Positions 5,762 through 58,448 of a stretch of DNA of 64,000 nucleotides are shown here, one piece after another. Under the pieces are notes generated by a model that made no database searches, was not told where the DNA came from, and saw nothing but the letters and a program-made list of their open reading frames with translations. Source of the stretch: Bugula neritina (Eukaryota > Animalia > Bryozoa); the NCBI GenBank assembly GCA_964035545.1, contig OZ037772.1, positions 5,646,233 through 5,710,232 of the forward strand, in the 5' to 3' direction. Each line of letters starts with the position of its first letter. Within the stretch, counting starts at the first letter, position 1. The position numbers and the translations under genes were made by a program.

Positions 5762-6067
5762 TGTGGTGGCTCGTGGAGCTACCAGCAGCACAACATGTGG
5801 GGTCGCGTAATTGACCCGGAACAATTGATAGCCAATTAGCGTGTTTAATAGTTAGCAGCAAGTATAGTTTCCCGCTGCTAACTCAGTCGAAGTTAGAGTG
5901 CTGAATAGACTAGATGTGTAACTTGTCAGATGTATTTGTATCGTTTTTGTAATGTATGGTTGTGTGTAAAATATATACTCGTTCACTCGACTTAACCTGG
6001 TGCAGTTCTATCGAATTAATTAGACTCTCTGGATAGCATATCAACCCTAAATCTGAAAAATATAACA
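5762..6067 (+). mobile_element. Solo LTR (306 bp) of the Gypsy family found at 34660-41636
   Basis: TG...CA ends, ATAT 4-bp TSD (5758-5761 / 6068-6071), colinear with the LTR at 41332-41636, and absent from the paralogous site in duplication unit 1 (~4050). Confidence 0.92.
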
Positions 6068-14385: not shown

Positions 14386-14494
14386 TAAATACAATGCAAT
14401 GCCATACAATAAAACACAATGCAATGCTATACAATAAAATACAATACAATGCTATACAATATGATACTGCAGATAGTTATTGTTCTATAATAAG

Positions 14495-14799: not shown

Positions 14800-15138
14800 A
14801 ATGAACTATAATTACAATTTACAACTATAAGAAGTTTTAGTTTATTGGGATAATCTTACATCACACGGGAGCTAGTGCACTATTTGACTCGCCTCTGCGC
14901 AATTAAGAAGGAGTTATGCTCTACCTAAATGTGCGTATTACATAACACAGAACTATTTGCGTCTTTAAAGTCACCGGCTAGTTGCTAATATACTGGTGTT
15001 AAAAACGACCTTATTGTACTCTAAATAGCCTAAAGTTGCCTCTAAATATTTACCTAAGCCAGTTTCACAATTTGTAAGGGTAGAGTATTTATCAAGCGAA
15101 AGCTACTACAGCTGATCAAATTCGTACATTTAACAAAG

Positions 15139-20626: not shown

Positions 20627-23600
20627 GGCTATCTAGTATTGTACTGTACGAGTAACTTGTACCCGTCTCAACCTAGTCAGTGTGATAAACAGAGTGCACT
20701 AAGTCACTGCAGACATTGTGTCAAAGTGCTGAATAATTTATTATAGTTATATTATATAGCCTACTATAGTTTTTATCATTTAGAGTTTATGACTTCTGTA
20801 TTATTGTAAATAAATCTCAGTATTTAAATCAATTCTGATTGGTTTGTATTTAAACTGGGTCAAAGATGACAAATGACAATGATAAGCAAGTTTCATTCTA
20901 TTAGTTGTTGGTTTATAATGGTCTCCAGTATGTGACAATGATTGAGATATGTTAATAATATACTGGCAGGTTACATGATATGCTTTTGATATAAAAAGTA
21001 AAATACACAACTATAAAATACCTGTTTATAAATCTTATAAGCTTCTATATACCTTCGCCATCACATGCTACTCGTTATAGTCATACTATATCATTTGATG
21101 TGACTAAGCAAGAAAATATTTGCCATATAGAATGCAAAGCCAATTAAAGAAAATGATTTACTGAATCCACTCACTCTACAATTTATTTCAAGTCTATAAT
21201 ATAGTATAACTCATTACAGTAATAGAGAAAGGTGCAGATCAGTGTTATATGGTTAATGCACAGATTTGTGACTTTTTGGCCAAACATTTTACTCCTCTTA
21301 GGATATACAGGTGCCAATGCAATCTAATAAACAATTTTTACTGATGCTTAAGATTTTGAATAATGAAATGTGTAACCATCAGCTTTTAATAACTGATGGA
21401 TAATATTATTTGGCTGTCGATAAAAAATTGTAGTGTAAGAGTAGTCTGCTCTTTGCTTCGCCATGACAACAAATGCGTTATTATAATCGTCAGATATAAT
21501 ATCGGAATTGTTCTGAGATATAAGTGATCACATAACATCGCAGATTTGATCTACAAGCACGCAAAAATGTCCAACTCGGGAAATTTCTATTACTCATCTG
21601 TAGCGCAGTTTCATTTTCGACTTTCGTGCAGCAGCTTGCAGAAACAGTTTTGAGTAAAACTAGGTCAATCATCTTCACTCGATTAGCACGATTAGACCCC
21701 AAGTCACCCAGCAAACACTTTGTTGGTGAGAAAATTTTAATTTATCATATTCGACTTGAACCGATTAGGATTATGGTTATAACTGTAATCATCCATCACA
21801 CTATGATTATGATTTATTGGTTAAATGATTGAATTTGATGATAGCCATTGTCATTGTGATTGGCAGATTGCGATGCTTGGTCTCAGTCTCACGTAACTAA
21901 TACTAATACGAATGATAAAGTGATTGTCGTTGTAATTATTAATTAATGACTAACTTTAATAGGTTGACTGTCAATAACTCACTAACTTTAAGTTGGTTGA
22001 CATCACAATCGAAATGACTACAGCCTCAAACACAAAGTTACTACCAAGTCCAGTGTCAGCCCTTGTTAGATGTAGATGTAAATAATTCAATATTATTATC
22101 AGATAGTTGATGATGGAATTGTTTGCTGTTCTTGGAACTTGGGCAATGCCCAAATCTTTTTTTATTTCTCTTGTTATTCACTTGTATGGGTATTGGTAAC
22201 TGATGTGAAATCATTGTGATCAATATGATTGCGTCATCCTAATATGATGTAATTGTAGAACAAAATGTCATCTAAGCCACAACAAATGGTAAGATGTACT
22301 ATTTGTTTATCTAAACTCAAGTTAGAGGAATGTAAGGCACTACCTTGTACTCATCCACACTGTGACAAGTGTTTGAATGAATTCTATGGAAGGCTAAACG
22401 CTCTTAAATGTGGAATATGTCGGTAGGTTTATATCAAAGTATTTACTATGTGTTTTCGCTATGTACAGGATGTATTGCAGTTAAAATGATAATTTACCAG
22501 GTAGAATGGAGCACATTATGCTATGAACGTTGATTCATAAATCTTTTCTAACATGGATCTATCTATCATAAAGATATTTCTGTTACAGACAAGTGTTCGA
22601 TACAACACCTGATAAATTACCAACAGCAGACCAGATGAAACAGATAGATAAGTCTATACTCTGTGAAGTCTGTACAAAGTCAGGAGAGAATAATATACCT
22701 GCTCTGGTGTATTGTTTAGTTTGTTCCAAACTGTACTGTGCTAAACATATCATTGTAAGTTACCATTCTTTAGTTTCTTATCCGTGCGTGGATATTTATA
22801 GGTTGGATTGGACTGGTCACCAACTTTGGGCCAAAATTTTAGCAGATAGGTGAAGATCTGATTAGGTTAATCAAACAAATATATTCACTCATTTCTTCAC
22901 AAAAATTTGTTTTGTGCCTTTCGATCTTAACATGTATTGATCAGCCCACATCATGCTGTAGTTTATTATGTTATGGTCGAGGGGACATAACCCTCAAGAC
23001 TCACTTATTGCACTCATGTTTCTATTTTATTAGATTTTAAGATATAGCTTTATATTTTTAGAAGTAATCATGTACTATTGCATATATACATTAGGAGTTA
23101 TTTAAGATCATGACATTGAGGCCGTTATAATGCATACATGGGGTTTTATAAGTAATATTATCAGTAAATCACAAACTAATTTGTATTTATTTATATAGGA
23201 TCATGATATTGTGGCTGAAGAACATTCTAGAATTAGTATGACAGAGTATAAAGCTCGTGCTGCTAAGTTAGAGAAGAGAATGTGTGAGACACATGGAGAC
23301 GTAGAGTATACTTTGGGTTGTAAAGTCTGTCTGAAACTATTCTGTACTCAATGCGAATCTACATCTGGTGTATGTGATGATGGTAAGTGTTCGTTTGTCT
23401 TCATCACTCATTTCAAATATAATATATCTCAGAAACATCACAGAACACATTACTTAACATGTAGAATATATACATTACCTACCTCAGGTACATCACAGCA
23501 TACAATGCTTACATTGAGTGATTTGACAATGCAACTGGTAGAAGTTTCAAAGTTGAAGGCAAGGGAAGACAACTTATCTGATTATTGCAAGCAGATAGCT

Positions 23601-24391
23601 GCACGCATTGATGAGTTTAGAACTGAAACCAAGAATTTATTGGTGTTGCTATGGAAACAGCGTGATGATCAGGTGACTATTACATGGTTTTTAAATTTGA
23701 TAATTATAAAGATCATATAGAAATTGTGAGAGTTTGTTTATAGCTTTTTAATAATCATCTGAGATAAGCTACTTTTTTGGTAGATGCAAGATGGTTATAC
23801 ACTCAGACACTCTTCAAATCATTCTAGCTTGTCTAACATTTAATGTGACTGTATTTAGATAGCAGCTATTCAACAGAAGTATGACAAACTGGAGAAAGAA
23901 CTGGTGGATGAGAGAGAAAAGACTGAGAGTCAAGCAGTGAACTTTATGGTAGAGGAAGTGGGGGTTAGGTACTGTAAGCTTTATAATCACAGAACAGGGA
24001 TAGAGGCCAAGTTGAACCAAAGTCATGAGGTTAGTTGCAGAGCATAGATAATAGATGTTATGGTGTGTGTATCTGTAGCAGTTTGATGTTTCATATAACA
24101 TCTATGGATCATTTCGGCATAGAATAATATAGACATAATGTAATGAATTGCAAAAATGCCTTACCATACCCTACTACTATAACATGGCATACTGTATAAT
24201 ACATTAGGGTACTGTGTAATACCACAAAAGACTGTCTAAGAGCCCAAACTTTCTTTTTATAATGCTTTTTTGTAGTTGTATGTTGTTTGTGTTGGGAGCA
24301 AATTTACCTCACTCTTACAGATTTTCTTGTTTATCCACGAAACTTCTGTCTAATCAACAACTCCCAAACAGCTACTGCACAGTGTCACGAT

Positions 24392-29300: not shown

Positions 29301-31010
29301 TATAGCTCTGTTATGCAACATCTTCTTTTGTTCCACCAGGTAGTTTACACAAGTTACTTAGGCTTTTGAAGTGGTTCACCTGATCCACTATTCAGTAGCT
29401 TGTTTCATTGTTAATTTTAAGCTTCTTGTTTGAAACGCATTTGCTGATAACTGAGTACATTGGAGTTTAATGGTGCATCTCCCTGATCTCTCTTTTACAC
29501 ACATTTTAAATTAGTTGGCTTTCCTTTCCATGGATGAAATTGACTAGTGAAGCTTAAACTACCCATGCAAGAGATATGTGCAGTTGAAGTTTTTTGTTGA
29601 TAAATTCAACTTAAGTCTTTGATAAACGGAGTGGGGCAATGTTTAGTAGTAGTCTGGTAACAAGCTATTTGAAAATGTCTTGGGTTCAAAAAAATTTCGA
29701 AATCATAAACAGCTAGTAGGTTGAAGGAGTTTCATTCCACTTATATGCTCCCCAGTTAGTTTGTAATTTTTGTTTTGGTACCAAGTATTGTATACCTATA
29801 TACCCTTATATAACTTTCATATTGATTGCTAAACATAAAATAACCATTAATATGATATATTTGCAATAATATTTAAATTTTCCCAAATTTGTGTTGAAAA
29901 AAAGCATTAAATGCATTAATAATAACATATTTTCAAAAAACAAAAAATATAGAAAATGCGAAATTAATAGGTTTATGCAGGGCAAAGAAATTTATTTGTG
30001 TGCCAATTATAAAAAGCAATTGACTCAAATTTATTTAAATACACATATATTTCAATAGTGTTCAAATAAATTGCACGTAAAATGTATAAATAGCATCTAA
30101 CTGGGAAGCACCAATTGAAATGACCCAAATGTAGGGTTCAACTTCATCCTAGCTTCCTATAAAGGTTTGTGATCATCATTAGGGCACATGTGAACGAATA
30201 ATGTTGTTAGGTGAACAACTGCCAATTGTTCCATAATTCTTATGTAAATAAAATTTTGCTTGAACATATGTAGTTGTAGCATTGATCTCACTTTCTGCTC
30301 CTATCAACTACTGTTTAGCTTCATTCAGACCTAGGGATGATGATTACGTAATACTTGTGAAAAGTAGTGTTGACTTAACAACTAAGTGGTTTCAGAGCTA
30401 CTACAAAATATTTTTCAGCTTACACTAATCGGATTAATTTTCAATTTCATCAAAATAAGTGCAGGTCTAACAACTATTAGAGGTGTGGTGCAGGCTATAC
30501 GGACAATAAAAGGCTCTTTGAACAACTTTAGTGCAAGCGCTGCACTAATATTTCTCTCTGTGTACCATTTAATGGACATTGGGAAGGTTGTTTGCAGTTA
30601 CATTGTGTGTCATTTAGTTTAGTAGCTGTAGTAGGGATGTGTGCGGTTTTAAGTTTGTGTTGGTTCGAGCCATCAATAATATTTTTCCTGTTGGGCATGC
30701 ATGAATAACTAATTTTTATAGTTTTCCTATTACAAATTTTACTTAGTTGGTTGGATGGTGGAAAGGATTTGTCAATGATTTGAAGAAATTTTTTCCCTAT
30801 TTTGGTTTTTACTGTTGAACTAAAAGGTGGGTTGTACCACAATATATTTCTATTTCTATTTTTATTATTGTTGTTGGATTTAGGTGTCGGGTTATATTTT
30901 AATTTATAGTCATATCCACTGTTTGATAGTGCTTCTTGGTATGGTTTTATGGTGCTGTTAAACTCCTCCTCATTGGAGGATAGTGAGCTAAGTCTTTTTT
31001 ATATTTTCTG
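26398..31010 (-). mobile_element. Second Penelope-like fragment (RT thumb/linker plus GIY-YIG), split by a 3.77-kb DNA transposon into ~30563-31010 and 26398-26796
   Basis: WYNPPFS...IGKKFL..IDKSFP...KISYSCMPN...CNC...CPLNG|KCLYKDIIYQATV...YIGL...FKTRFNNHKASF...RCNLCSYEKYII. The frame is restored exactly when the insert and one TA copy are removed. Confidence 0.88.
26797..30562. mobile_element. Non-autonomous DNA transposon, 20-bp perfect TIR CACAGAGAGAAATATTAGTG, 2-bp TSD (TA); probably CMC/EnSpm-like
   Basis: TIRs at 26797-26816 and 30543-30562; internal ~22-bp tandem array (~26990-27250); no intact transposase ORF. Confidence 0.85.
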
Positions 31011-34000
31011 GTAGGTATATATATGTGTGTGTGTGTGTATATATGGTGTATCAGCTGTATTTATTTTACATTATGGCGTTATATATATACATGTTAATAT
31101 TTACATGACAGGAAAAAGAAGAGATATAGATATTGGACTGACCAATAAAAAAATAACTAGTGTAACTCCTGAACAAAGACTAGTTGTCTCACCCCCACCA
31201 CCCAAGTCTATAGAACTGATAAACTTTGTTGATGTTTCCTCAAATTGCCTTACTGTTCACACCTATAAAGGTGTCACATATGCTGGGTGTGATGGAGGTG
31301 TAGACAAGATAGATGAGAACAACAAAGTAACTAAATCATTTATCTCTATTAAGGGTGGTGATGTGATGAGTATCTCAGTACATAATGATATAATATGCAG
31401 TTTGTCTGCTGATTCAACTGTAAGAGCTCATGACCTAGAAGGAAGGTCTATCACCAGCTGGACTCATACAAAGTACTCCCAGAGCCAAAATCAGCTTGCC
31501 CTCATAAACAATCAGATAGCTATTTCTGACAGGTTGAATAGGACTCTAGTCATTTACTCTTTGAATGGGGAGGTAGTAAACACTCTAGCCTGTCCTTTGC
31601 TCACTGATACTCCTGTACATCTGTCTGCTGCAGATAACAACTCAGTTATTATATCTCAACCTAACTCATCTCTAGTATACAAAGTAGACATCTCATCAGG
31701 TGACATCATATGGCAGTGTAAGGATGTGGCTAAACCCCATGGAGTGACCTGCTATAGAGATGAGTTTGTACTTGTGGCTGATGATACTAAACCTACCACA
31801 CTCTGTGTGATATCATTACATACAGGTTAGTTACATGTGTAGATAACTTGTGTAATCTATATAAGCAATACAAGTCAATGCAGTGTTTTATTTGTATTTA
31901 TTTATATTTATTTCTATTGAATTACACCATTTATAATTAAAATGCATATATGATTTACACGAAATTCAATACAATCAGTTATACTGCATGCATTTACCTG
32001 AACTTATTAAACTACACAACTTATATAATTTATTTTGTTGATTTATACACTCAACGTGTCATACATACAGGGAGGTTACTAACCGGGATACCTATTCAGT
32101 ACAGTTCTGATATACACTTCACTGGCTCTCATCTAGTAATGTTAAGAAGAGGCTTCTTTTGGTCATGTGTTGATTTCTATCAGCTGGAATAGAATTGGAC
32201 TGGTAGACTTAGATACTCCAACAACGGTTAGTAGTTTTTGTGGAAGGTACCGAGTCCTTTCCTACTTCATGTTTGTAGTATACTCCTTGACTGTAACAAG
32301 TTACCCTGCATTTTCCTTACTCCGCACACTTATTACCATTATGCCCATTGAACTATAACCTATATAGGAACCAATTGGATCCTGAATTAAACATCACATC
32401 CAACATCTATCAATATTTAGCCATTCAATGCTAAGCTTATTTAGAACTCACTCGTGCAGTTTTTTTAAAATTTTGCTTTTTTATTGTCAGTGTGCCTTGC
32501 AAATCTATTGTAACATATTATCTTTTCGAACAATAATTACTTCCAGCATTGTATCGTTTACCAGTCATCTCCACCTATTTGTAAGCACAATCTCTTCCTG
32601 TTTGTTTATCACCTTAAAGTGTATTTCTCAAACAGCTATATATAATTATTATGTTAGAGACTATATGTTGGGTAGCCTAAACTGCTTTCAGACAACATGT
32701 CAGCTAGAAAGTTAGGTTGGTCAAATATCTCCCCATATGTTAGTAGAGACTGTTACGGGAGCTTTTTGTTCTAGCTTTTAGTAAATATTGTTGATGAAAG
32801 CTTTTTTGTGAAAGCCTTTGCAATAGCTTTTTTACTGGTAGCTTTTTGCTGTTTTATGAGAGAGTACAGTTCAAGAACTGAAAGAGGAAAGATTGCTGTG
32901 ATCATTTGCTGTTATAGTTTTCCTTTTGTTAAATATACAAACAAGTTATAGACTGTGTTGCCCAAATATTTGTTAATGCATTGTATGAAATATAAACTGT
33001 TGGCATTAAGCAAACAGTTGATTCGTATCCTGCATCTGTGCATCCAGCATTCGGCATCCGTGCTATCACAACAAATAGGTATCGGTGCCATTCAGCATCT
33101 ATGATGTCACAGAGACCTTTTGGTAGTAGATTGACTTAAAGATTGCATACTCTGCTTTTAATTTTTCTGTATATCATATTAATTGTATATTTACACACAT
33201 TGTATTGTATCTTTTGTATATTATTATTGTCATTTCCTTTGTATTACATTTTGTAGAACGAAATTCATACATTAGTAGTTTCCCACCACCCAAAGTGCGC
33301 CACCACACCGTCAATCTTAAATAATTAGTCTGATCACTTTCCTTAATCACTATAGACGTCTAAATGTTTTAACTTCCTATTTTACAGTAGACTATAGAGA
33401 CAGTCTATAGAAATGCTCTTAACATGTAATATTGTCTATTCTATTCTTTTATATTCTATTTTGTAATTATTTATTTAATTATTTTAAACTATCTTGCATT
33501 GATATGTCTATTGCTTATTTTTGTAATTAAACGTAATATGTTATATCCATAAGTAAATCCGTGAACTTAAAATTTCAAGTTAGTAGTGGCTAAATACATA
33601 TAAGTTGTAGATTTTAAAAAATAGTTATCTAGTTTGTTCTTTTTCTTGGCTATATCTTTTCTAAGCTCTTTTCTTTTCTAACTATCATGAGCATTTTATT
33701 TTCTGATTTTGTTATCAAAACAAAAGATGTATCAGATTTCCTTGATCACATGAACAGGTTGCTGTGTTCTCATGTGACTTGTTTTTTATGAGGCTGTTTA
33801 AAGTCGTTTTCAGTAATACCAAATAATATATTTCCTTACAATAAGCATATTCCTCTGGTGACTGTTTACTAAATAAGTAGAAAAAACTTCATTTGGTCTT
33901 GTTTTTTTAATACTTTCAAATTTTAGGGGTTTTTTCAAATTAAAAGTTGCACTACTATCAGACATGTTACAGACAGTAACATATATATAATCAGTAGTTT

Positions 34001-34670
34001 AAAAGCATGCAATCTATTATGTTTTAGTTTCAAATGTTTTTATTAATCCGCAAAAAATTCCATATTACCAGGTGATTTGGATATTATCTTGCCGTTCAAG
34101 TATCTTCCTTGTGGTGATAGATTGATCTCAGGATGAGCAATAAAATTTTCCTGCCATAGGAGTTCTATTAAAATTACAGATTTGCTTAGAGTTATCTTTC
34201 CCAATAGATTGGCTGCACAATAGTATATACTGCAACTAGAAGGTCTACTGTTGCTAACGGGTATATTTTTAATATGCAAATTGTACCAATAAGTTGAAAA
34301 TGATGTACCTAATCTCCTCAGAGAATAAAACCATTAATTATTTGAGTGCAGCTATGAGCTTGCCCTCTCTCCTTCAGCTTACACGAGCTGCACTATAAAT
34401 GATATAAGCTATATAATTGTAGTTAGTTTACCACAAAGCTCTATTTTTACAAAAATTGCCAGCAGTCAGGTCTTTCGCTAAATATTGCTAATATTTTTAC
34501 AAAACTGAACTACGTTACAGTATCTATTTGGTGAAAGATCGTAAAACTTTCTACAAAGCACCTGCACTCATAAATAGTATATCCATTTTCAGGTAAGTCA
34601 TTATTTGAAGTTTAAAAGTAATATATATATATAATTAAAAGTAATATATATATATATAATTAGCGACGTA

Positions 34671-35420
34671 ATGGACGTCGCTCAGTGGCCCCCTAGGGTG
34701 GCCTTGCTGAAGCTTAGAATGGCATTGATGGACAAAGCCAAGCCCTATGGGCTGGGCGTAGACATTGATAATATCTTTGCTTCTCTGCGGGCCCGCTTTG
34801 GCCTCTCTGCTACAGATGCCAGGGCCCGATTGCAGAGGTTGCGGCGTGATCCCCGCACCCCGCTGCGGGAGCATGCCGCCGCAGTCATGAAGCTGGCACA
34901 GATCGCGTACAGCGACTTGCCCCCAGTCAACCGCGAGAGGTACACCCTCGACGCTTTCATAGCATCTGTCGACGATCTGGGTCTCCACCACCAGTTTCTA
35001 GCTAGGGGAGTCACCACCGTTGAAGATGCTCTGACTGAGGGGGAAGCTTACCTCCTAGCTAATCAAATGCATAAAAGTCGCGGAAGCTCCCGCCAAGTGG
35101 AGATAGACCGCGCAGACACGGCCGCGGGACAAGGGGAGGAAACCCCCGCCGCGGCTGCCGTGTCCCAGTTGGCGACGGCATCAAAAGTCACTCAACTGAC
35201 GGACATGCTAGCCAAGCTGATAGCAACACTGACACCACAAAACCCAGTGAGTACCGCCCCTGAGCCCATGCGGCCATCGGCGCCGCCACAGGGAGAAACA
35301 GTCAGTTTTTGCTGGGAGTGCGGAAATCAAGGACATTTCCGCCGATATTGTCCCTTCCTAAATCAGGGGTTAAACTACCGCGGCCCGCAGATGTTCCCAC
35401 CTTCCGCGGGCCGACGATGA
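34671..35420 (+). CDS. gag: Gypsy Gag (N-terminally truncated) with CCHC zinc knuckle
   Basis: CWECGNQGHFRRYC knuckle and a capsid-like helical region; begins right after a (TA)n breakpoint. Confidence 0.85.
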   Translation: MDVAQWPPRVALLKLRMALMDKAKPYGLGVDIDNIFASLRARFGLSATDARARLQRLRRDPRTPLREHAAAVMKLAQIAYSDLPPVNRERYTLDAFIASVDDLGLHHQFLARGVTTVEDALTEGEAYLLANQMHKSRGSSRQVEIDRADTAAGQGEETPAAAAVSQLATASKVTQLTDMLAKLIATLTPQNPVSTAPEPMRPSAPPQGETVSFCWECGNQGHFRRYCPFLNQGLNYRGPQMFPPSAGRR

Positions 35421-38400
35421 AACCTCCAGGGAAGAAGAAACGCAGGTCACCCAGACGGGTACCGCGTACTGGCAACCAACAGTGGCAACAGCCACGACGG
35501 ACCAGCAAGGGGCTTCGCCCCGCGGCTGCCTTTTCTATGCCTCTTCACAACAGATTCACAGGGCTACAAGTCCAAGAATCTGGATGGGAGCACACAAAGG
35601 TAGCTGAGAATCTAGCCTCGGCACCCCCGAGGCCTACCTACCACCGCTCCAAGAGACCTCCTTCGCGACCCAAAGCGAGGGAGGTACTCCCTGCGAGAGT
35701 AAGGCCTGAAGGGAGAGTTCAGGTGCAGCCCCATGGGAACAGCTATTTCTTGCCCGGTAAACTGGAAGGCAAAGCTGTTACTTTTCTCATTGATTCGGGC
35801 TGTACCACAAACCTCTTAAGCCGCCAACTCTTCGACACCCTCAGCGCTAGGGTCAGGGGCGAGATGGAAGCATACGAAGGGGAATACGGCACCCTAGCTG
35901 ACGGGTCGTGCCTTCCCTTCTATGGTATAATTGAGCTGACGGGACGAGTCCGCGATCAAACGATCCAAGAGACGTTCATCGTCAGTCAGCTCAAGGAGGA
36001 TGCTATCCTCGGGATGCCGTTCCTTAAACGGCACGGATGTCACATAGATTTTAGCAGATCTGCAATGATGATGTCCGGGCGGGAACTCGCCTGCGTCGAC
36101 AAGTTCGGCCGCCCTTTAGTGGGAGGTGTGCAAGTGGTACGCAACCGTACCATACCAGGCCGCTCCCGGGCTACCATTCACTGCAGGGTGAATAGTAGCC
36201 GGATCTCTGGACTCGGGGTGGTTGAAGGCGCGCACGAAAAGATCCAACTTGCCAGCAGTCTGAATCAGCTGACTGAGCAAGGGGAGATCTTAGTGCAGTG
36301 CGTCAACCCCTTTACCGAGCCTATCAAGCTCCCGGCTGGGTCGATGCTGGGCCGTTTTCACTCTGTTCAAGAGGGAGACGTAGGCCCGTCGCTGGGTGAT
36401 GCGACAGAGGCACTCCCTCGACACCCTATTCAGGGACGAGGGGCAGTCCCAACACATCTCCGGGAGTTATATGAAACAGCCAGTGGCGGCTGCGCGAGTA
36501 ACAGGGAACGCCAAGCTATGGCTAAGTTACTACGCGACTACGGTGATGTGTTCAGCAGCGAAGAGCATGACGTGGGACTGACTGGAATTGTCAGACACGA
36601 AATACCGCTGACTGCAGGGACAGTCCCTGTCCGGCAGCCCACCCGCAGGTTGGGGCCGGAGAAAGAGAAGGAGGTTAGCCGACAAGTACGGGATCTTCTG
36701 GACCGGGGACTGATAGAGCCCGCCCATAGTGCGTGGAGCTCGCCAGTCGTACTGGTCCGGAAGAAAGACGACAGTTGGCGGTTCTGTGTGGACTACCGCA
36801 AACTCAATAGCGTAACCATACAGGACGCCTACCCTCTACCTCGTATTGACGAGTCATTGGACGCCCTAGCCGGCAGCAAGTACTTCAGTACGTTAGACTT
36901 GCTAAGCGGCTATTGGCAAGTTCCTCTGAGTCCTGACGCCCAGGAGAAAGCGGCGTTTATCACACGGGACGGTTTGTGGAAGTGGAAGGTGCTGCCCTTC
37001 GGGTTAACCTCCGCCCCAGCCACCTTCCAGAGGCTGATGGAACAAGTCCTTAGCGGACTCCATTGGAAGACACTGCTGGTCTACCTCGATGATGTCATCG
37101 TAATCTCTCCAGACTTCGAGACACATGTCAGTCGTCTGCAGGAGGTTTTCGAGAGACTCCGAGGTGCCGGTCTTAAGCTCAAACCTTCCAAGTGCGCTCT
37201 ATTGCAGCCGGAGGTCAAGTACCTGGGGCACGTTGTCGGTCGAAACGGCGTGGCAACGGATCCCGAAAAGGTACGGGCAGTAGAAGACTGGGTCACCCTC
37301 CAAGACTTGACCGGACTCCGGGCTTTCTTGGGGCTGGTAGGGTATTACAGGCAATACATACCAGACTTTGCGGGCATAGCCCAGCCGTTAAACTGGCTCA
37401 CCGCAAAGGGAGTGACGTGGCAGTGGACTCCAGTCGAACAAGAAGCGTTCAACCGCCTCAAAGGCTGCCTACTAACGGCGCCCATCTTGGCCTACCCAGA
37501 CCCCACTCTGGAGTACATCCTAGACACGGACGCCAGTGACCAGAATGTTGGCGCTGTGCTGTCACAAGTGCAGGAAGGCCGAGAGGTAGTAGTAGCCTAC
37601 TACAGCAAGTCTCTCTCACCCGCTGAACGAAATTACTGCACTACCCGCAAGGAGCTGCTGGCAGTAATCAAGTCAGTGAAGCACTTCAGACCATACCTAT
37701 ATGGCAGGAAGTTCCGGCTGCGTACGGATCATGCCTCGCTGATCTAGTTGTGCAGGAGAGCAGAGCCCTCTAGTCAGGTCGCCCGGTGGCTCGAAATCCT
37801 AGCTGAATTCTCATACCGGATCGAACATCGACCGGGCAAGAGACACAGCAATGCGGACGGGTTGAGTCGCCGACCTGACGGAGGTTGCAAACAGTGTCTC
37901 AACATCGAGAGGAGGGATGGAGGTCCCCCACGATGCGAGTTGGAGACGCTGGCTCATCACGGAGCACCGTTTGACTGGGATCAAGGTCAACTCAGGCAAA
38001 GAGTTGATGAGTCCCCGGAGGATGTACAAAACCTCCGCGCCAACCCTGTACTGGCCGGTAATGTTCGAGAGCTGAAGAAGCTCCAAGAAGAGCTGCCTGG
38101 AGTCGTGGCAGACATATACCGGGCCAAAAGGGAAGGGCGACGACCCAGCGAGGAACACAGACGACAGGGATGCGCCGAGTTCCGGCTATACTGTCAGCGT
38201 TGGGACTCGCTGCGGATCGGGCAGGATGGGTTGTTAACCATCTCTCTAGCTGCCAGCGGCAGACACCCGGAAAGGAAGAGGGTAGTCTGCCCCACAGCCA
38301 TCCGCCGTGAGTTGATTTGGGATACTCACAAGCAGGCTCACGCAGGGGTCAAGCGAGTGATATCCAAATTACGACTCCGGTGGTATTGGCCGCAGATGGA

Positions 38401-39940
38401 GCGTGACGTCCGGCTCAGAGTCAAACAGTGTGAGATCTGCCAGGCCAGTAAGCATAGCCGCCCCCCTGGTGAAGCAGGACGGCGGAGGCTATATGCTGGT
38501 AGGCCCTGGCAAGTAGTCGCTGTAGACCTGGTCGGACCCATGCCCCTGACCCCCAGAGGCAATAATTGGATCCTAGTACTAACCGACCACTTTACTAGGT
38601 GGGCGGATGCTCTGGCTATTCCAGATGCATCAGCCCCAACAGTGGCCAGGGCACTAGACCAACATGTATTCTGTTATTTTGGGCTTCCCGAACAGATACA
38701 CTCTGATCAAGGCGCTCAATTCCAGTCTCAACTGATGAGCGACCTTTGCCGCCTCTGGGGAGTAAATCAGAGCAGGACCACCCCCTACCACCCTCAAGGT
38801 AACGGGGTGGTGGAGCGCAACAACTGGATGCTAGGTGATGCACTCCGGAGTCTCCTCCTTGGACGAGGTCAAGAGGAATGGGATACGGTGTTGCCGCAAG
38901 TCATGCGTGCATACCGTAGCACCCCACACACCAGTACTGGTGAGACCCCAAACCTCTTGATGCTCGGGAGAGAGACTCGTGTCCCCGACCATCTCACCTA
39001 TCACGTTCCAGAGCAAGATAACTCAGTCCACGAGTATGCCAGTGAACTAGTGGAACGGATGAAGGCCGCACACGATATACTGCGCCAACAGCAGTGGAAG
39101 GTGCGGCACGAAGATTCCGATGAACCACCCCTCTATCAAAGGGGAGATAAGGTGTGGATGGTCAATTACCGTAGGCGCCGCGGACAGGCTGATAAGCTGA
39201 AGCCTAAGTTCGTAGGCCCCTACGTGGTCGTCGAGGCTATGCCCAATCATACGTACAAGATTGAGCGCTCAGGACAGGTGTCTATCCAGAATGAGTCTCG
39301 CTTGAAACCGTATTGGGCTAGCCCCGACGGAGTGGGAGAAGCCCCCCCGTTGTTAGAGCCCAGGAGGCAGACAACAACGCGCGGGCGACGGCGGCATGGA
39401 CCTGAATACAAAGTGGTCATACCGCGGGAAGAAAACTTGGTGAGAGAGGAGCGGCAGCTTTTGTCAACAGAAGCGTGTCCGCCACCGCCAAGTCTAATTC
39501 CATCACTTCCAGAAACCGAGCCGGTTCCGGAAGTGCAAACCCCCACGGAGGGAGGGGCTCCATCCGGAGAACAAGAAGAGGTGACCGCTGACGGTGAAGT
39601 AGAGACGCCATTAGAGGCCCCTACTAACAAACCGGCAAGCGTGTCACCCACCCTAGAAAGGGGACAGCGTACGAGACAACCCCCCGCATACTTGAAGGAC
39701 TTCGTATGTGACTGCGTTAAAAGCGGCACACATGAAAGTCTAGGGGAAAACCGTACGAGAAAAGAATCGAGCAAATGTGGGAGTTGTCAACACCACGGAA
39801 ATATCAACTTTTGTATCGGCGGAAATAGAAACAAAATTCATCCGCCGGGTGCACAAAGTCTTAATCACGCACCCCAACCACGTTGCTCGATCTTTTCATA
39901 CGCTGATGCAGTCAGGAGTAGACGTGTTTCTAAGCAGTAG
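35309..39940 (+). pseudogene. pol: Gypsy Pol (protease, RT, RNase H, integrase) with one in-frame TAG at 37745-37747
   Basis: LIDSG protease, YLDD RT, DASD/TDH RNase H, HHCC plus D-D-E integrase and GPY motif. The two ORFs (35309-37747, 37748-39940) share a frame, and the stop falls where Trp (TGG) is expected in TDHASLxWL. Confidence 0.92.
35369..35413 (+). promoter_or_regulatory. Predicted -1 ribosomal frameshift signal (G_UUA_AAC plus GC-rich stem-loop)
   Basis: Pol is in the -1 frame relative to gag. The heptamer at 35369-35375 is in gag codon phase, followed by a 5-nt spacer and the stem CGGCCCGC (35381-35388) / GCGGGCCG (35406-35413). Confidence 0.65.
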
Positions 39941-39964
39941 TTCAAACCATTTCACACATTCAGT

Positions 39965-41042
39965 ATGTCTTACGACAACAGATCGTGGGGTGAGTTAACT
40001 ATATCTTAATACGAAACTAGATTGCATCGCTCAGCTCTGACTCACTGAGTCAATCGAGCTGGAGATAGGTTAGTGAAATACCGTAGTAAGAACTCAGTTT
40101 GACTTAGAGATTTTTATAATCTCATTGCAATACGTGTTCTATCTGACTATTCACTACCATTAATCTCTACGAGGTAACTGAATTAGGAGTTGCCAAGCTG
40201 TTCAAGCTGACAACACAGCAGTGTACTGTATTAACACTGTTGAAACTTTTTCAGATTACACTCGACCCGCTACAACCAGGGTACGGGATAGAACACTTCC
40301 CGCTCCGTATCCGGAGGAGTATGCTAGTGGTGACCGGCCTGAGCCACTACGCCGCCGTTGGCGGTGGGTGTCTCCACAAACAGAGGAAGAAATAGAAACG
40401 GCCTGGGGGTCCAGAGGACGGACGAGATGCCAGATCTGTGGTGAAGATTGCGCCTCTCACCGCTCCCTTAAACTACACGTCAATGCTCATCTCCTACTAA
40501 CATTCTGCCCCTGCGGGTACAATGATGTGTATCCCTACCCCGTCACCAGACACCGAGCGGCGGGCTGTTTCCCTGGAGAAAGCTACGTGGTCGACGCTAA
40601 GCTATACCCGGAGTTCCTCACACTTATACGACCTCTGGTGAAGAAGGCCATGTTGTTAGCCGTTTTGTCCTCGGGGTTCCAACGTGTGTTAGACAACGCC
40701 CGCCAACAATCCCCGTTGGTGTCTGACCGTCCTCAAATTACATACACCCCCGAGGAAATTACATATCCAGAAGAAGGAGAGATCTCCCCCGCACCGGCGA
40801 AGAGACGAACCAGGTCCCCCAGTCCACCCTTGCGCCGCAGACGGACACCGTCCCCAGACCCAGTACGCCTGGCTACAGTAGAAGAACGCCTCCTACGATT
40901 ACAAGAAGAGTTCACCCAGCTGGCACCAGATCTACTTAACACTACAACAGGACTCTTCCAGCTAAAGGGATCCGTATGCCGTATGAAACGGAAACTGCGT
41001 ACATGCCAAGCCAAGCACAGGCGTGCCCAACAAGGACTCTAG
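39965..41042 (+). CDS. Gypsy ORF3: predicted two-exon (39965-39989, 40255-41042) 270-aa protein with C2H2 and C2HC zinc fingers, an Arg/Ser-Pro-rich basic region and a leucine zipper
   Basis: ATG TCT TAC GAC AAC AGA TCG TGG G|GTGAGT donor and tttttcag|AT acceptor, both phase 1. Motifs are Cx2Cx12Hx3H, CxCx12Hx4C, PAKRRTRSPSPPLRRRRTPSP and six a/d heptads. Confidence 0.75.
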
Positions 41043-41320
41043 TTAGGCTACCCAGAATACTCCGCGACTTCACATCTTGTGAGGAACCAAGATCGTGCAA
41101 ATGCTTAACTGCTAGACAGGTTATTCCTTGTCTAATACCACAGCTAGCTAGTATTCCTCGTCTATCTACAGCTGGCCAATTGTATGCAACGGATCGTTAT
41201 AATGACTCTGTCTATTATTATGTCTCTTCCTGTATATTATGTATTATTTTTGTCCACTGATGTATGCAATTACTATTGAATGTTTTTTTTATATATATAT
41301 CAGAAAGATGGCTTTCTGCT

Positions 41321-41331
41321 GGTGGGGGCGG
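41321..41331 (+). promoter_or_regulatory. Polypurine tract of the Gypsy element
   Basis: GGTGGGGGCGG immediately 5' of the LTR TG. Confidence 0.7.
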
Positions 41332-41636
41332 TGTGGTGGTTCGTGGAACTACCAGCAGCACAACATGTAGGGTCGCGTAATTGACCCGGAACAATGGATA
41401 GCCAATTAGCGTAGTTGATAGTTAGCAGCAATTGTAGTTTCCCGCTGCTAACTCAGTCGAAGCTAGAGTGTGAAATAGATTAGATGTGTAACTTGTTTGG
41501 AAATAATGTATCGTTTTTATAATGTATAGTTGTGTGTAAAATATACTCGTTCACTCAACTTAGCCTGGTGCAGTTCTATAGTAGATAAATAGACTCTCTG
41601 GATAGCACATCAACCCTAAATCTGAAAATCTTAACA
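41332..41636 (+). repeat. 3' LTR of the Gypsy element
   Basis: TGTGG...TAACA, colinear with 5762-6067; the right flank resumes TRIM 5' intron sequence homologous to ~7062 onward. Confidence 0.92.
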
Positions 41637-41776
41637 CTATATACTTGTCATGGAATCTTATGTTCTATAAGTTAAACCATAGCAGAAACTTGTTTATTTT
41701 CAACTTCATCACTGTGATAACTTTTATGATGAGTATGCCAATATCAATATATGATTGTGTCAACTTTTCATAGTAT

Positions 41777-42185
41777 TGTAGTGAATTTTGCCAGTTCACT
41801 ATTATTATGTGTGGGTCGACTTAATCAAAGCCACTGCACCAGGTTGTTTACGCTAAGATACTTTATTATTTACACAAATACAAGAAGGTTATTTACTGCT
41901 AACATGAATAGAAAAACGATTACATAATTAGTGAGCTTTAATACACAACTACTCTAAATGAAGTCCCAAGCTGCTCTGCCGGCTAGCTACTCAGCGCACT
42001 GCAACTATGAGTAGCTAGCTCCACCTGCTATCAATTAGTGTGACTGTCCTGATTGGTGGTTACTAGTGGTGCCACTGCTGTCCATAGCTACAATCCGACA
42101 GGGTCGAACTCACAATATAATAAACAATATAAAGTGAACCTTTTCGATTAATACAATAATAATTGCACCACTAAAATCTACCACA
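41777..42185. mobile_element. Solo LTR of a second family (409 bp), probably antisense
   Basis: TGTAG...CCACA ends, GTAT TSD (41773-41776 / 42186-42189), absent from the near-identical copy A site (~7197). TTTATT near 41862 suggests a polyA signal on the minus strand. Confidence 0.8.
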
Positions 42186-42201
42186 GTATTTGTAGAACAA
42201 A

Positions 42202-45200
42202 ATGGCTTCTAAACCACAACAAATGGTGAGATGTACTATTTGTTTATCTAAACTCAATATAGAGGAATGCAAGGCACTGCCTTGTACTCACCCACACTGT
42301 GACAAGTGTTTGAATGAATTCTATGGAAGGCTGAATGCTCTTAAATGTGGAATATGTCGGTGGGTGAATAATATAATAACATAATAATATGTTACATAAT
42401 ATTCTATATTTCATAATATAATGTTCATAGTAACATAAATATCGTAGGTAGGTAGGTGAATAATATAATAATATATAATATAATATGTTACATAATATTA
42501 TGCAGGTATTTTATAATAATGTAAATTATAATATAAATAATATGATGATATTTACTATAAGTGTTTATGCTATATGTAGTATACCTGTATTGCTATACCA
42601 GGTTATAGAACAGATAGTGTTACACTGTAAACTTTTATATATAATTATTATACTTTATATACTATATAGCCTATAGTCAATAATCTATCAACAATAAATC
42701 GATCATTTATTTTATAGACAAGTGTTCAATACTACACCTGATAAGTTACCAACAGCAGACCAGATGAAACAGATAGATAAGTCTATACTCTGTGAAGTCT
42801 GTACAAAGTCAGGAGTGACTAACACACCTGCTCTGGTGTATTGTTTAGTGTGTTCCAAACTGTACTGCGCTAAACATGTCATTGTGAGTTGGCACTCTGT
42901 AATTTTTAGCTGTGTGCAAATGTAGTTTTATTTGTCTCTAGACTCTGGAGTAAATTAGCTGCCATCAGGTAAAAATATTTATTGTGTTATCTGTGTATGT
43001 CTCCTTATATTTTGTATAGATAGATTGGGGTAGCCAAACTTCCAAAAAGCCGAATATATATTCGTATTTTGGTGTTATTTCACAGAGAAATAATTTAATA
43101 ATTTCACAATACAAAATCCAAAGTATTTGAATCCATTGATCAAGTGAAATCATTTGCTTATTTCCACTCATCTCTTCATATGGATTGGTTTTTATGCTTT
43201 TAGAACTTAGCAAATTTTGATCAACATACAATTCCTCATATGGATTGGTTTTGTGCTTTTAGAGTTTAGCAAATATCGATTAGCATACATTATGCTGTAA
43301 TTTAGAATACCCTGGATAAAATATATGATTAAGGGGACATAACTCTCATATTTCACTTGTTGCATTCATGATTCAATTCCACTATAAATTGCACGGCACA
43401 TAGCTTTTAGTATTATTCTAAATATATCATATAGCATTGCATATATACTTTACGCAGTATAAGATTATGACATTGAGGCAATTATAACGTGTAAATGCAA
43501 TCTAATATATACAATATCATTAGTAAAATGCATACTACTCTGCATATATTTATTGTAGGATCATGACATTGTGTCTGAGGAACATTCTAGAATTAATATG
43601 ACAGAGTATAAAGCTCGCGCTGCTAAGTTAGAGAAGAGAATGTGTGAGACACATGGAGAGGTAGAGTATTCTTTGGGTTGTAAAGTCTGTCTCAAACTAC
43701 TCTGTACTCAATGTGTACCTACAGCTGGGTTATGTGTCCATGGTAAGTGTCTATTCTTCTGTTTACTTGCTATATATATTACATGATTCAGGTACACAAC
43801 AGCTTATACATTCTTTGTATATATTACTTCAGGTACATCACAGCATACATTCTTGACATTGAAAGATTTAACAATGCAGCTAGTGGAAGTCACAAAGTTG
43901 AAGGCAAGAGAAGACAACTTATCTGGTTATTACAAACAGATAGCTGAAAACATTGATGAGTTTCAAACTGAAACCAAGAAGCTACTGGGGATGCTATGTA
44001 AACAGCGTGATGATCAGGTGATTGTTACATGGTTTTTAAATTTGATAAATATAAACATCATATGGAAACTGTGAGAGTTTGTTTATAGCTTTTTGATATT
44101 TATCTAAGATAAGCTACTTTTTTGATAAATGCAAGATGGTTATACACTCAGACACTCTTCAAACAATCCTAGCTTGTCTAATGTTTAATGTGACTGTGTT
44201 TAGATAGCAGCTATTCAACAGAAGTATGACAAACTAGAGAAAGAACTGGTGGAGAAGAGAGAAAAGACTGAGAGTCAAACAGTGAACTTCATGGTAGAGG
44301 AAGTTGGGGTTAGATACTGTCAGCTGTATAATCACAGAACAGGAATAGAGGCTAGGTTAGACCAAAGTCATGAGGTTAGTTGCAGAGCATATATAGTAGA
44401 TGTTAGGATCTGTAGCAGTTTTATGCAATATTTCAGTGTCTTTATATAATTTATATATTTCTTGTTTCTCTATCTGTAAATAACATCTAAAGATTATATA
44501 AGTAGAAAATGGATCAGGTAATGACCAATAATAGGACTTCTATAATATAGGGCTGTCCAACATTTATGCCACCCTCAAAGACATAAAGCAAAGTTTTTTG
44601 CTCAGATATGCTAATTAAAGTGGAAAAACACCCTTAATTAAATGCCTTTTTGTGTACATTGCTAAAACATACAGCCTGTATTAGTTAATAGGACTTCATT
44701 GTGTAACGATTTATAAGAATTTTGAATGAAGCAATTGAAAAAATACTGTCACTGTGTTCACAGTTCAAGCTAAGTTTAACAGACTGGTCGTTGTCATTAG
44801 AATATTTCACTTTATTTGCCCTCGGTCTGAAAAGGTTTGACACCCAGTACTATAACGCTATATGACACTGTATTATAATATATAGGATACTGTATAATAC
44901 AATAATACCCTAATTAATACTTATAATATCATAGGATACTGTATATAGTACTATAGAACATTATATAATACTATACGTTACTGTATAATACCATAGAGTA
45001 GGCTACTGTAAACTACTGTATAGGATACTGCAGTATAATAGTTAATACCATATGATACAGTATAGTGTATAATCGTATAGGACACTTCACAATATACTAT
45101 AGGATAATGTTTTATAATACTATATTAGGATGCTGTATTTATTACCATATAGCACACTGTCAAATTTGAAATCTGTGCTTTCTTAGGGTACAGTTTATTA

Positions 45201-47598
45201 GCTTAAACTTTACCCATTAGTTTGTAGAAGTCTGTTTCCCTTATACTGCATTGCAATCTCTATCCTTCAATGTTTTGCTTTGCAATGCTGCTCTTTAGAT
45301 TTTTTTGTTAGTCTCAAACACAGCATTGTTGTTGATCTCATTGTCCATACTCAACCCTGACATGCTCGATAATAGCAAACAACTCCCAAACACCTGCTAC
45401 ACAGTGTCGCATTGTCTGTATATTTAATATTGTTAGGTTGACATCATCAAGTCATATCGTGATATGAAGAAGGAGATTGATAGACTGTTGACAGAAGAGA
45501 TTCCTAAGTTAATGGATTTCGATTTTGTAACATCAGTTAAAATCAAAGGTTGGTTTTATATGTTATCCATGCAAAATTATTTGAAAACAACATATTGAAT
45601 AGAACTAGAATAAATGGTCATTTTATGACATTTTGTTATGTCTTGTCGTATTTAAATAACATCATCACGGAAGTATATTTTGACCTTTAGATTTCGGGTA
45701 TATTATGTATGTAAGCTATATGTTGCTAACTGTTACATTTTCATTTTCATTTTCCTCGTTTGGTATTTCACTCAATATAAAAAAACTCTTGCAAGTCTAT
45801 AGTCACCATCTCTGTGAGAAACCCCTGAGGTTTTTGTTAAAGAGGGCTAAGGACTTATTCAAATGAGGCACAAGAGCAATTATGACTGGATGCTTTTTCT
45901 AACATCACCAATAGCCTTTTTTAGGAGCAGCCTCAGTTTAGGAGTTAGCGCGTTTGACTAGTATTTCACTTTATATATTTGTCTTATAAAAATACAATAT
46001 ACATAATAGTTTAATTTGACATGATGAAAGCATTACTATAATGATATTTTCCAAAACTGGGTTTATACTATTGCCACACTACATCCCTACAATATACTAT
46101 TACACCAAGTTTTGAAGTAAATAATGTTAGTGGGAATCTTTAGTATTTAATCTACACTGAGGAGGAAGTGGCCTACATCTCCCCCATCTGTAAGCTTCTC
46201 TCAACTATATTATAGACTTACACACTTGTGCAATAGCTGTGCTTACTCTTGGAGAATACTAATACAAGTTGTTGGTGAACACAACCTAATTTAATATAGT
46301 AGTATATCACTAAATAGAATATCATTTAAATTGATTTTAATATTTTGTTGACATGAAGGGAGCTGTTGATTTTTTAAATTTTTTTAATAATTGATTCCCA
46401 TAAAAATAATCTGGTAGGGAAAGCAAAATTGTAATAATAATTTTTTAAATGAAAAATGGACGGTCATTGCAGTGCTGCTATAGCACTGCTGTTTGTGTAG
46501 TGATGCACCAAAATATACATGTATATGTTTATATATCTGCTATTTTTTCTGATGTATCAGCTGTTTTATATTATATTACCATGTCATGCGTGTTAGTATT
46601 TTATTACAGAAGAGAAAAGAGATACAGAGATTGAGTTGACCAATGAAAAGAGAGCAAGGATAACTCCTGAACAAGGACTGGTTGTCTCACCTCCACCACC
46701 CAAGTCTATAGAACTGATAAACTCTGTTATAGTTTCTTCATACTGTGAGTCTGTTTACACCTATAAAGGTATCACATATGCTGGGTGTGATGGAGGTGTA
46801 CACAGGATAGATGAGAACAACAAAGTTACTAAATCGTTCATCTCTATTAAAGGTAGCATTGTGTGGAGTATCTCAGTACATAATGATAGGATATATACTC
46901 TGTCTTGATTCAACTGTAAGAGTTCATAACCTTGAAGGGAGGTCCATTACCAGCTGGACTCATACAGATAATAAATCAAAGTGGCTAAATCAGCTTGCCA
47001 TCATAAACAATCAGATAGCTATTCCTGACAGGCTGAATAAGACTCTAGTATTTTACTCTCTGAATGGAGGTAGTAAACACTCTACCCTGTTCTCTGCTCA
47101 CTGATACTATTGTACGTCTGTCTGCTGCAGATAACAACTCAATTATTATATCTCAGCATCACTCATCTCTAGTATACAAATTAGACACCACATCAGGTGA
47201 CATCATATGGCAGTGTAAGGATGTGACTAAACCTTGTGGAGTGACCTGCTATAGAGATGAGTTTGTACTTGTGGCTGATATTACTAAACCTACCTCACTC
47301 TGTGTACTATCATTACATACAGGTTAGTTACTGTGTAGAATGCATATAGCGTATGAAACATAAGTGTTATAGTTTGATGAAATGAGTTCATTCATATTTA
47401 TTTTTATGCTGCAAATAAATTGCACTCTCTTTTTATCATCTTTAATTCCTAAAACAGAAATTTATGTATTTTATCCCGGCAGGCAAGTTACTAACTAGGA
47501 TACGTACTAAAGACATGCTTCATTTACACCTTAATGGCTCTACTCTACTAGCTTCAAGATTATTTTGTAGGTCAGTACTGTTCTGTCAGCTGAAGTGA
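42202..47598 (+). pseudogene. TRIM-like copy C with two 2-nt deletions in the propeller exon (TGA at 46906-46908). Exons 42202-42359, 42718-42883, 43559-43742, 43833-44017, 44204-44374, 45437-45548, 46610-47322, 47483-47598
   Basis: Exon structure matches copy A. C has TCT TGA TTC where B has TCT GCT GAT TCA, and aatggaggta where A and B have aatggggaggta. Confidence 0.87.
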
Positions 47599-50126: not shown

Positions 50127-50611
50127 GTTCAAATATATAAGCATTTTCAATAGATATACAACGCATATTTAGCATAATAATAATAATGACAGCAGCTTCA
50201 ACAATAGCACTTTTCAACTAATCGAAAAAAAAGTATTTCACAAGTTGAATATGTAAGTAAAGTACTTGAGGCTGTATTGTAAAAAAAAGACTTCTAATTA
50301 AAATACAGTGAATGTCATATAGATTTGTGTTAGCTGAATTGTGCAGTTTAATAACTTTCCTGTGTATTTATGTCTATCGTAGATGAACACCATGACTCTG
50401 GTTATCCTAGGCTGTATTCTTCTATTTATGTATTATGTTACACTGTATAGCATACATTGTACCCTGTATACATGGTATATGTTATATAATACAATATGCT
50501 TGGATATACTATACTTTTACTGGTTATATTATGCAATAAGTAATGCATGCTATTGCAATGTTTTAATGCCACAAAATAATAAAACATACACTATTCTACT
50601 TGTAGGACAAG

Positions 50612-56528
<5,917 letters not shown>

Positions 56529-57640: not shown

Positions 57641-58448
57641 CAGAGTTAGTTTAAGGTCATAACTTCCCAGATTCAGGCACTGCTTTACGTTATATATAAA
57701 CGGTTTCCATGGGATAGCTCAAACAGTTTTTGGTTCACATTACCAAATTATATATGAAAAGATAGCTCTCACATTCTTCTTTCATATGTTCTTTTTATTT
57801 TTTCAAAAAAAAAATTTTTTTATAAAGTTGTTACACAATAAGTAAAATTTTACACCCTCCTTGTTCCGCTGCTGTAGCATAAGGGATTAATTTTATTAAG
57901 TCTAATATCCAAACTTGACATTCGGTGATATGTTTTCTCTGATATACTTTCTTTGTTCATGCGCATCGCAATTTGGCCGAATCATACACCATTTTGCAAA
58001 CTTCATTGCAGTTATGTACATTCTTTATATGGTGGTTCTAGCTACGCTCCTGTGACCAACTATAACTTTCCCAGTACATTTGCAGCAGTGGCACTTGTAG
58101 TATAAGTAAAGTATAGTATAAGTAAAGGCAGAGTTAGTAAAGCTAAACTAACGAGCACTCAAATACAAGGCATATTAGGATACAATAACAAGTCAGGAGT
58201 GTGTAAGTTAGGAAATAGTTGAAAGGGGGACAATGTTTTTCAACAAGCTATAACTTGAAAATGAAAGGGCTTTCGACAAAATTAAAAAAAGTATATTGAA
58301 AAACATAATTTGCTTTTTTTTTCGTATTTTTGTTGTTGCTGTAACACTCGACCTGTTTGAGCTATCAGTGCAACATTGTTCATATCCAATGAAAAGCACC
58401 TGGCAAAGAGCCATAAACTGAAAAAAGCATGACCTTAAACTAACTGTG
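57641..58448 (+). mobile_element. CACAG-TIR family non-autonomous DNA transposon (808 bp), 2-bp TSD AA
   Basis: CAGAGTTAGTTTAAGGTCAT ... ATGACCTTAAACTAACTGTG; removal restores the LINE frame ELMF|CLRIL. Confidence 0.88.

Follow-up and report, generated by a model that had tools for sequence, protein, structure and literature searches.

Between pol and the 3′ LTR of a Gypsy element in the Bugula neritina genome lies a third gene, here called ORF3, which on the sequence comparisons below is a real, element-borne and lineage-wide gene. The element is found in the window, by which we mean the whole stretch of 64,000 nucleotides analysed (contig OZ037772.1, positions 5,646,233 to 5,710,232). Non-env third genes of LTR retrotransposons are already known, as is a spliced nuclear regulator of a Gypsy element (CERV). 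The notable and apparently new feature is an uncharacterised zinc domain, present across the clade and alternating between a tail of the integrase and a separate gene. Env-less Gypsy elements of animals are generally regarded as consisting of gag and pol alone, and here a large Gypsy clade retains a third, zinc-finger gene outside any Pfam family. ORF3 may provide the element with a transcription factor or with a tether for integration, and bryozoan hosts have likely drawn zinc-finger genes from it; the fused and separate families provide a natural comparison for the origin and splitting of retroelement regulatory or targeting genes.

The element occupies positions 34660-41636 as GC-rich sequence within AT-rich host DNA, and comprises the 3′ part of gag, pol, ORF3, a PPT and an LTR (Table 1). 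Its assignment to Ty3/Gypsy is based on the order protease-RT-RNase H-integrase found in pol by Pfam scan, on gag lying upstream of pol, and on the PPT and TG...CA LTR; the tree of the clade comprises unnamed elements. The copy is 5′-truncated, with the 5′ LTR and the start of gag missing: no 5′ LTR was found anywhere in the 64-kb window, the depth of family contigs starts near 34660, and the truncation junction falls within an (AT)n run. In this copy pol contains one premature stop, the true pol stop being at 39938-39940. The ATAT flanks of the solo LTR are likely a target-site duplication. Both LTRs share an identical 10-bp inverted repeat with a 14-nt spacer, which is not interpretable.

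Table 1 Features of the Gypsy element, of ORF3 and of the related solo LTR, in window coordinates.
Feature	Position	Strand	Remarks
Solo LTR, same family, 88% identical	5762..6067	+	flanked by ATAT on both sides
gag, 3′ part, CCHC knuckle	34660..35420	+	zf-CCHC E 0.11
pol: protease, RT, RNase H, integrase (H2C2, core, SH3), low-complexity tail	35264..39940	+	
Candidate upstream splice acceptor, CATTCAG^T	39957..39963	+	1 nt before the ORF3 ATG
Candidate first coding exon, 25 nt, MSYDNRSW plus one base	39965..39989	+	GTGAGT directly after
Candidate GT-AG intron, 265 nt	39990..40254	+	TTTTTCAG acceptor ending 40254
Main ORF3 exon, 788 nt: linker, zinc module, variable Pro/Arg linker, C-terminal coiled coil	40255..41042	+	
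Two-finger zinc module, residues about 56-177: N-terminal helix, C2H2 finger, CxC-H-C finger, helical cap	40347..40712	+	predicted fold
Arg/Ser/Pro-rich stretch	40797..40859	+	limited to the window's subfamily
Heptad coiled coil with basic end	40866..41024	+	best conserved part of the close family
PPT, purine-rich tract ahead of the LTR	41300..41331	+	
3′ LTR, 305 bp, TG...CA	41332..41636	+	

Read from stop to stop, ORF3 spans 286 codons (40182-41042) between pol and the 3′ LTR. An earlier note on this DNA, made from the sequence alone, had pointed out two zinc-finger patterns and a set of heptads in its product, and both were confirmed. Finger 1 (Cx2Cx12Hx3H) covers residues 83-103 of the 286-aa ORF and finger 2 (CxCx12Hx4C) residues 109-129, and each of the eight Cys/His ligands is conserved in 92-99% of the homologous modules that span it (123-140); the heptads L-L-F-L-L-V-L and V-L-L-T-L-M are predicted to form one helix spanning residues 227-285. 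Compared to the window protein, members of the close family averaged an identity of 0.59 in the zinc module and 0.76 in the coil, against 0.26-0.28 in the linkers. The Arg-rich stretch, which had been likened to those of Rev and Rex, did not hold up as a family feature and was rejected as such: it sits in a variable linker flanked by the conserved module and coil, and the motif is present in 4 of 63 close homologues. The reading of ORF3 as a protein other than Env, on the other hand, stands. The peak 19-residue hydropathy is 1.51, the N-terminus is hydrophilic and no membrane span is apparent by this measure, and ORF3 is therefore not an Env; among close homologues 4 of 53 reach 1.6, with a median of 1.22. 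An errantivirus-type Env, with signal peptide and transmembrane anchor, was also considered and came out negative.

Helix positions 1-5 of finger 1 are mostly R/K across the homologous modules, and finger 2 carries R and D at helix positions 1 and 2 in 41 and 39 of 74, respectively. The window protein is unlike typical base-reading helices in that its finger-2 helix starts Y-P-Y-P and its finger 1 is hydrophobic at position 6; C2H2 fingers bind RNA and protein as well. The first 60 residues of the presumed ORF3 contain 12-21 D/E in all seven other families examined, whereas the N-terminal linker of the window protein is not acidic (6 D/E, 8 K/R). Acidic segments with hydrophobic residues resemble acidic activation domains. 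Two loose NES-like patterns were found in ORF3, both inside the predicted folded module.

The module was further compared to known families and folds. No Pfam family scored above its cut-off for ORF3 or for members of the homologue alignment, with zf-C2H2 at E 0.14. Searched by sequence against the PDB, the module profile matched C2H2 proteins best (Aart, E 3.5e-7; HIC2 and SALL3, 1.1e-6), and finger 1 shares the canonical spacing of classical C2H2 proteins such as SALL, HIC2, ZBTB and Kaiso (matches at E 3.5e-7 to 1e-5). ORF3 differs from these proteins in having no TGEKP-type linker, in its CxC second finger, and in flanking helices that give a predicted compact domain of 120 residues. A model of the module only, built on 98 sequences, reached a pLDDT of 92.5 and a pTM of 0.85; the full-length ORF3 model was poor (pLDDT 61). 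The best structural match was Kaiso, at Z 3.5 and an rmsd of 3.0 across 57 residues. In the VIA comparison no match of the module reached Z 5, and a Foldseek search of PDB and viral models gave nothing at E 0.001, which does not in itself demonstrate a new fold. An Atlas search with the homologue P0066 returned only unnamed or generic C2H2 clusters (0.88-0.90).

Among 2224 candidates, 57 close homologues of ORF3 were identified at 45-97% identity, and 108 cluster representatives match ORF3 at E 0.001 or better. A search for ORF3 DNA with the alignment of homologues found nothing in the metagenome or viral contigs searched, and the pol of the element found nothing in the viral contigs searched. 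We gathered 80 loci with an integrase alignment, of which 26 were informative, defined by an integrase identity of at least 39% and at least 1.2 kb of downstream sequence; the remaining 54 were too short, truncated or more distant. The module was located 619-1054 nt past the integrase on the same strand in 16 of the 26 (1010 nt in the window) and on a permuted contig in a 17th, in eight loci the slot was taken by a different, related pair of tandem C2H2 fingers (seven recognised by pattern, one by eye), and a single locus had neither zinc module nor finger pair. With 57 close homologues and the module behind the integrase in 17/26 informative loci, the notion of a family-wide third gene that is not env is well borne out. 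Below 39% integrase identity, the module profile matched none of the 10 loci with enough flank, one of which (L049) belongs to a sister subclade. The clade carrying the module covers 47-68% integrase identity. Across 19 elements the distances of module and integrase correlate (Mantel rho 0.65, p 0.0001), a sign of vertical inheritance; the distances were taken from FastTree, and subclades account for part of the correlation.

The layout common to these elements is integrase, low-complexity linker, Met, acidic segment, zinc module, variable linker, coiled coil, stop, PPT and LTR. In the sister subclade (L007, L023, L030, L031, L032, L042, L045, L049 and L054), which has the other tandem C2H2 pair in the same slot, a long acidic-hydrophobic C-terminus replaces the coiled coil (13-18 D/E with hydrophobic residues in 3 of 3 C-termini examined), and the unit is fused to Pol in some members and separate in others. 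A protein with a related integrase, P0214, has a precomputed PF08719 match in its tail, representing another add-on domain.

The earlier note was right about the existence of a third gene but had overlooked that in sister elements the same module is an in-frame integrase tail. Ten of the 120 Pol relatives listed carry the module as an in-frame C-terminal tail (profile E 1e-7 to 4e-26), and these make up 10 of the 13 listed Pol relatives with tails of at least 394 aa. At the level of loci, 6 of the 16 module loci (4 families) show one unbroken Pol-module ORF, 5 (2 families) have a genuine pol stop followed by a separate ORF, and the other 5, all broken copies, were read as fused, two via an intact family member and three by inference; P0195 and L021 are the same element. 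Separate ORFs after a true pol stop were seen in the window, the L002 family, L018 and L001, that of the L002 family lying in another frame behind a 330-nt AT-rich spacer. Where fused, the module follows a low-complexity linker of 190-620 residues, and the acidic segment is opened by an internal Met. The two states are interspersed in the tree, and among relatives whose state is known, those nearest to the window's element are fused (moderate supports).

For the window's own ORF3, a spliced gene had been proposed, and its mini-exon, donor, 265-nt intron, acceptor and 788-nt exon were all located at the coordinates given for them. The phases match as well, both candidate intron ends being phase 1, and the spliced ORF3 would comprise 271 codons in total. 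The mini-exon is in the pol frame, 8 codons past the pol stop. The window's subfamily (3 of 21 rows) has no Met between the acceptor and finger 1, and the fingers therefore need an upstream start. The mini-exon ATG sits where fused relatives have their internal Met, in the pol frame, and 17 codons behind a SYADAV motif; similar motifs are found 12 and 21 residues ahead of the internal Met in two relatives. Among the family contigs on 39800-41400, indels occurred in the coding parts in 0 of 10 rows and in the intron in 5 of 10, an avoidance of coding parts with P 0.004 on six clusters. Furthermore, the 47%-identical homologue P0022 starts Val-Ser exactly 88 codons before its acceptor equivalent, corresponding to the same 265 nt; splice sites of close homologues were read from protein sequences alone, and N-terminal extensions were compared by eye on three-frame translations. 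All 23 proteins showing the motif by which they were selected have residues compatible with AG at the acceptor. The Met of 'MFSDY' was considered as a conserved start and rejected, as it is M in 13 or 14 of the 23 motif-bearing homologues and T or I in most others.

The need for an upstream start, the indel pattern and P0022 make splicing plausible, and we regard the junction 39989^40255 as probable. The part of the earlier proposal that did not materialise is the junction itself, which appears in none of the family contigs on 39800-41400; the single metatranscriptome run has a depth of 2-6 across the region and no contig over either splice site, too thin to count either way. With the gene itself real, it appears rather unlikely that the mini-exon and intron are products of chance, with ORF3 spliced from a 5′ donor to 40255 or using a nearby start, in a subfamily copy that is perhaps decaying. 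When the gap was shuffled 2000 times, a phase-1 ATG mini-exon with GTRAGT at its end turned up 80 times (a chance of 4-8%), and most subfamilies (18 of 21 close homologues) own a Met beyond the acceptor and may do without the mini-exon. Some copies (P0006) have an ATG within the proposed intron, and in residues 38-66 the listed differences are non-synonymous in 7 of 9 cases. A chance origin has to contend with the agreement of ATG position, frame and upstream acceptor with the ORF3 start in relatives, with the donor GT at the same 265-nt distance in P0022 (protein-read), and with indels that avoid both the mini-exon and the main exon. Among the 17 exon differences listed, the synonymous share is 8/17 against 30% for neutrality, a weak signal (P 0.11), as is the 6 of 8 beyond residue 100 (P 0.012), a subset picked post hoc.

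The CATTCAG^T just before the ATG, which had been noted as a possible second acceptor, is present, and comparable acceptor-plus-ATG arrangements exist in L012, L018 and L033, where the acceptor stands directly before the ATG with 9-10 pyrimidines of 12. The pattern is weaker in L002 and L008, while L003, L013, L021 and L037 show it faintly or not at all. Overall, a strong acceptor directly precedes the internal Met in 3 of 9 families compared to 17 of 511 background ATGs, an enrichment with P about 0.05-0.1 after allowing for several ATGs. The window's upstream acceptor may thus be the entry point of a subgenomic RNA.

Taking these features together, we tentatively propose that ORF3 could encode a nuclear DNA-binding regulator of the element's own expression, made from spliced RNA. 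A transcript from the 5′ LTR would be joined by splicing to the upstream acceptor next to the ORF3 ATG, and the window's family would additionally lose a second intron, of 265 nt. The fingers would bind DNA, probably the LTR or nearby chromatin, the protein would oligomerise via its coil, and it would raise or protect transcription in the manner of the spliced transactivators of complex retroviruses. The intron would be kept in the element because unspliced RNA would remain the template that is copied. The regulator is favoured by the occurrence of ORF3 as an ORF of its own in several lineages, the basic finger helices, the acidic segments and the conserved coil, and it is weakened by the window family, which has no acidic segment and has prolines at the start of its finger-2 helix. 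In addition, the fusion to integrase (4 families, 10 proteins) would fit tethering at least as simply.

The fusion in sister elements opens a tethering role, in which the module would dock the integration complex on host DNA or chromatin; we consider this rather unlikely. Chromoviruses carry a chromodomain at the Pol C-terminus, as described in PMC12440569, and the fused relatives resemble them in having the accessory domain as an in-frame C-terminal integrase tail. They differ in having a zinc module plus coiled coil and no chromodomain, which was absent from Pfam scans of the window pol and of five fused relatives, and in the separate ORF of the window element. Where the module has been split off, it would work in trans, or read-through of the stop combined with splicing would attach it to Pol. 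The uninterrupted Pol-module ORFs of 6 loci from 4 families and of 10/120 listed Pol relatives, the fused state of the window's nearest relatives of known state, a mini-exon in the pol frame behind a single stop, and the co-divergence of module and integrase are all as expected for a tether. Less easily accommodated are the separate ORFs in at least four lineages, including the L002 family with its out-of-frame ORF behind the AT-rich spacer, and the long low-complexity linker, internal Met and acidic segment that precede the module even when fused.

Cer1, a Ty3/Gypsy element of C. elegans, offers a known parallel: its CERV protein, the product of a spliced RNA, exports unspliced RNA as described in PMC10309623. 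As CERV is a spliced nuclear regulator of a Gypsy element (PMC10309623), a 'complex Gypsy' is not a new category. Like ORF3, CERV is an extra non-Env protein with a leucine zipper, a cysteine finger and a spliced RNA, the latter being a candidate only in ORF3 (PMC10309623). Unlike ORF3, it shares exons with gag, is 517 aa long, and has a C4-type loop and a G-protein-like domain (PMC10309623), whereas ORF3 follows pol, has a C2H2 plus CxC-H-C module, and is integrase-fused in sister families. CERV is moreover nematode-specific, without homologues outside nematodes according to PMC10309623. An export factor of the Rev/CERV type, a spliced product that would bind unspliced genomic RNA, oligomerise and export it, seems improbable for ORF3. 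An intron-bearing element must export its unspliced RNA, the coil of ORF3 has a basic end and CERV sets a precedent (PMC10309623); the Arg-rich motif is nevertheless confined to 4/63 close homologues, both loose NES-like patterns lie inside the predicted folded module, acidic segments would be unexpected in an export adaptor, and the gag-linked CERV of 517 aa, with its H, M and G domains, is unlike a C2H2 module (PMC10309623).

Other third genes bear resemblance to ORF3 in part. Bdelloid rotifer LTR retrotransposons have non-env ORF3s downstream of pol, typically expressed from spliced messages, which encode GDSL esterases, DEDDy exonucleases, and TM or coiled-coil proteins (PMC5408684). These are family-specific and shared between unrelated elements, in contrast to the zinc module here, which is clade-wide and diverges in step with the integrase, and the word 'zinc' is absent from the main text of that source (PMC5408684). 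The foamy virus Tas/Bel1 protein is a nuclear transcriptional activator whose gene is placed, like ORF3, just before the 3′ LTR (PMC8003144); it may serve as a functional model only, with no homology claimed, and it differs from ORF3 in belonging to env-bearing retroviruses with an internal promoter (PMC8003144). Neither 'zinc finger' nor 'ORF3' occurs in the main text of two surveys of the Gypsy clades of molluscs and annelids (PMC6238403, PMC8556966), and an ORF3-type gene is not described in the portions covered of PMC13524379, PMC3383448 and PMC2836005. A description of the ORF3 family was not found in the open literature searched, of which the supplements, as well as Repbase and GyDB, may annotate such an ORF.

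Homologues with a species assignment, among 30 proteins looked up, came from Watersipora subatra and Bugula neritina, and the window's ORF3 family groups with a Watersipora protein (support 0.98). P0066/P0164 and P0115 from Watersipora subatra and P0168 from Bugula neritina encode one or two copies of the module and no pol domains, with P0066 also having a C-terminal coil; they are candidate domesticated ORF3 genes. These three host-annotated proteins occupy three separate places in the tree among element-borne modules (low supports), and domestication or annotated elements consequently fit better than host capture. Recent capture of a host zinc-finger gene by the window's element, which the earlier note had named among the findings that would speak against it, was not borne out and is highly improbable, since the annotated homologues in the two bryozoans are set against a module that keeps its slot throughout a clade whose integrases are 47-68% identical, co-diverges with the integrase, and has its host-annotated members scattered (low supports). 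A broad reading, which we regard as doubtful, would see here a hitherto overlooked clade of 'complex' Gypsy elements from marine invertebrates, lacking env and having their own transcription-factor-like protein, whose new zinc domain, alternately integrase tail or separately spliced gene (with an intron of its own in the window), could both steer integration and transactivate the LTR and would have been domesticated by bryozoan hosts.

The host DNA of the window contains an array of tandem paralogous genes (7063-12700, 22250-24100, 31000-31830, 41640-47300 and 50600-55800), and the Gypsy element is located inside one unit of this array. The exons encode B-box (zf-B_box E 5e-4 and 5e-5) and beta-propeller-like segments (weak matches), and the genes are probably of TRIM/NHL type. 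A fragment of another reverse transcriptase lies on the minus strand at 58208-58840 (RVT_1 E 3.8e-6). Finally, two inverted repeats of 456 nt (60245-60700 and 63186-63641), 2.5 kb apart and 89% complementary, are related to repeats at 14489-14812 and 57641-57957 and possibly represent a DNA transposon.
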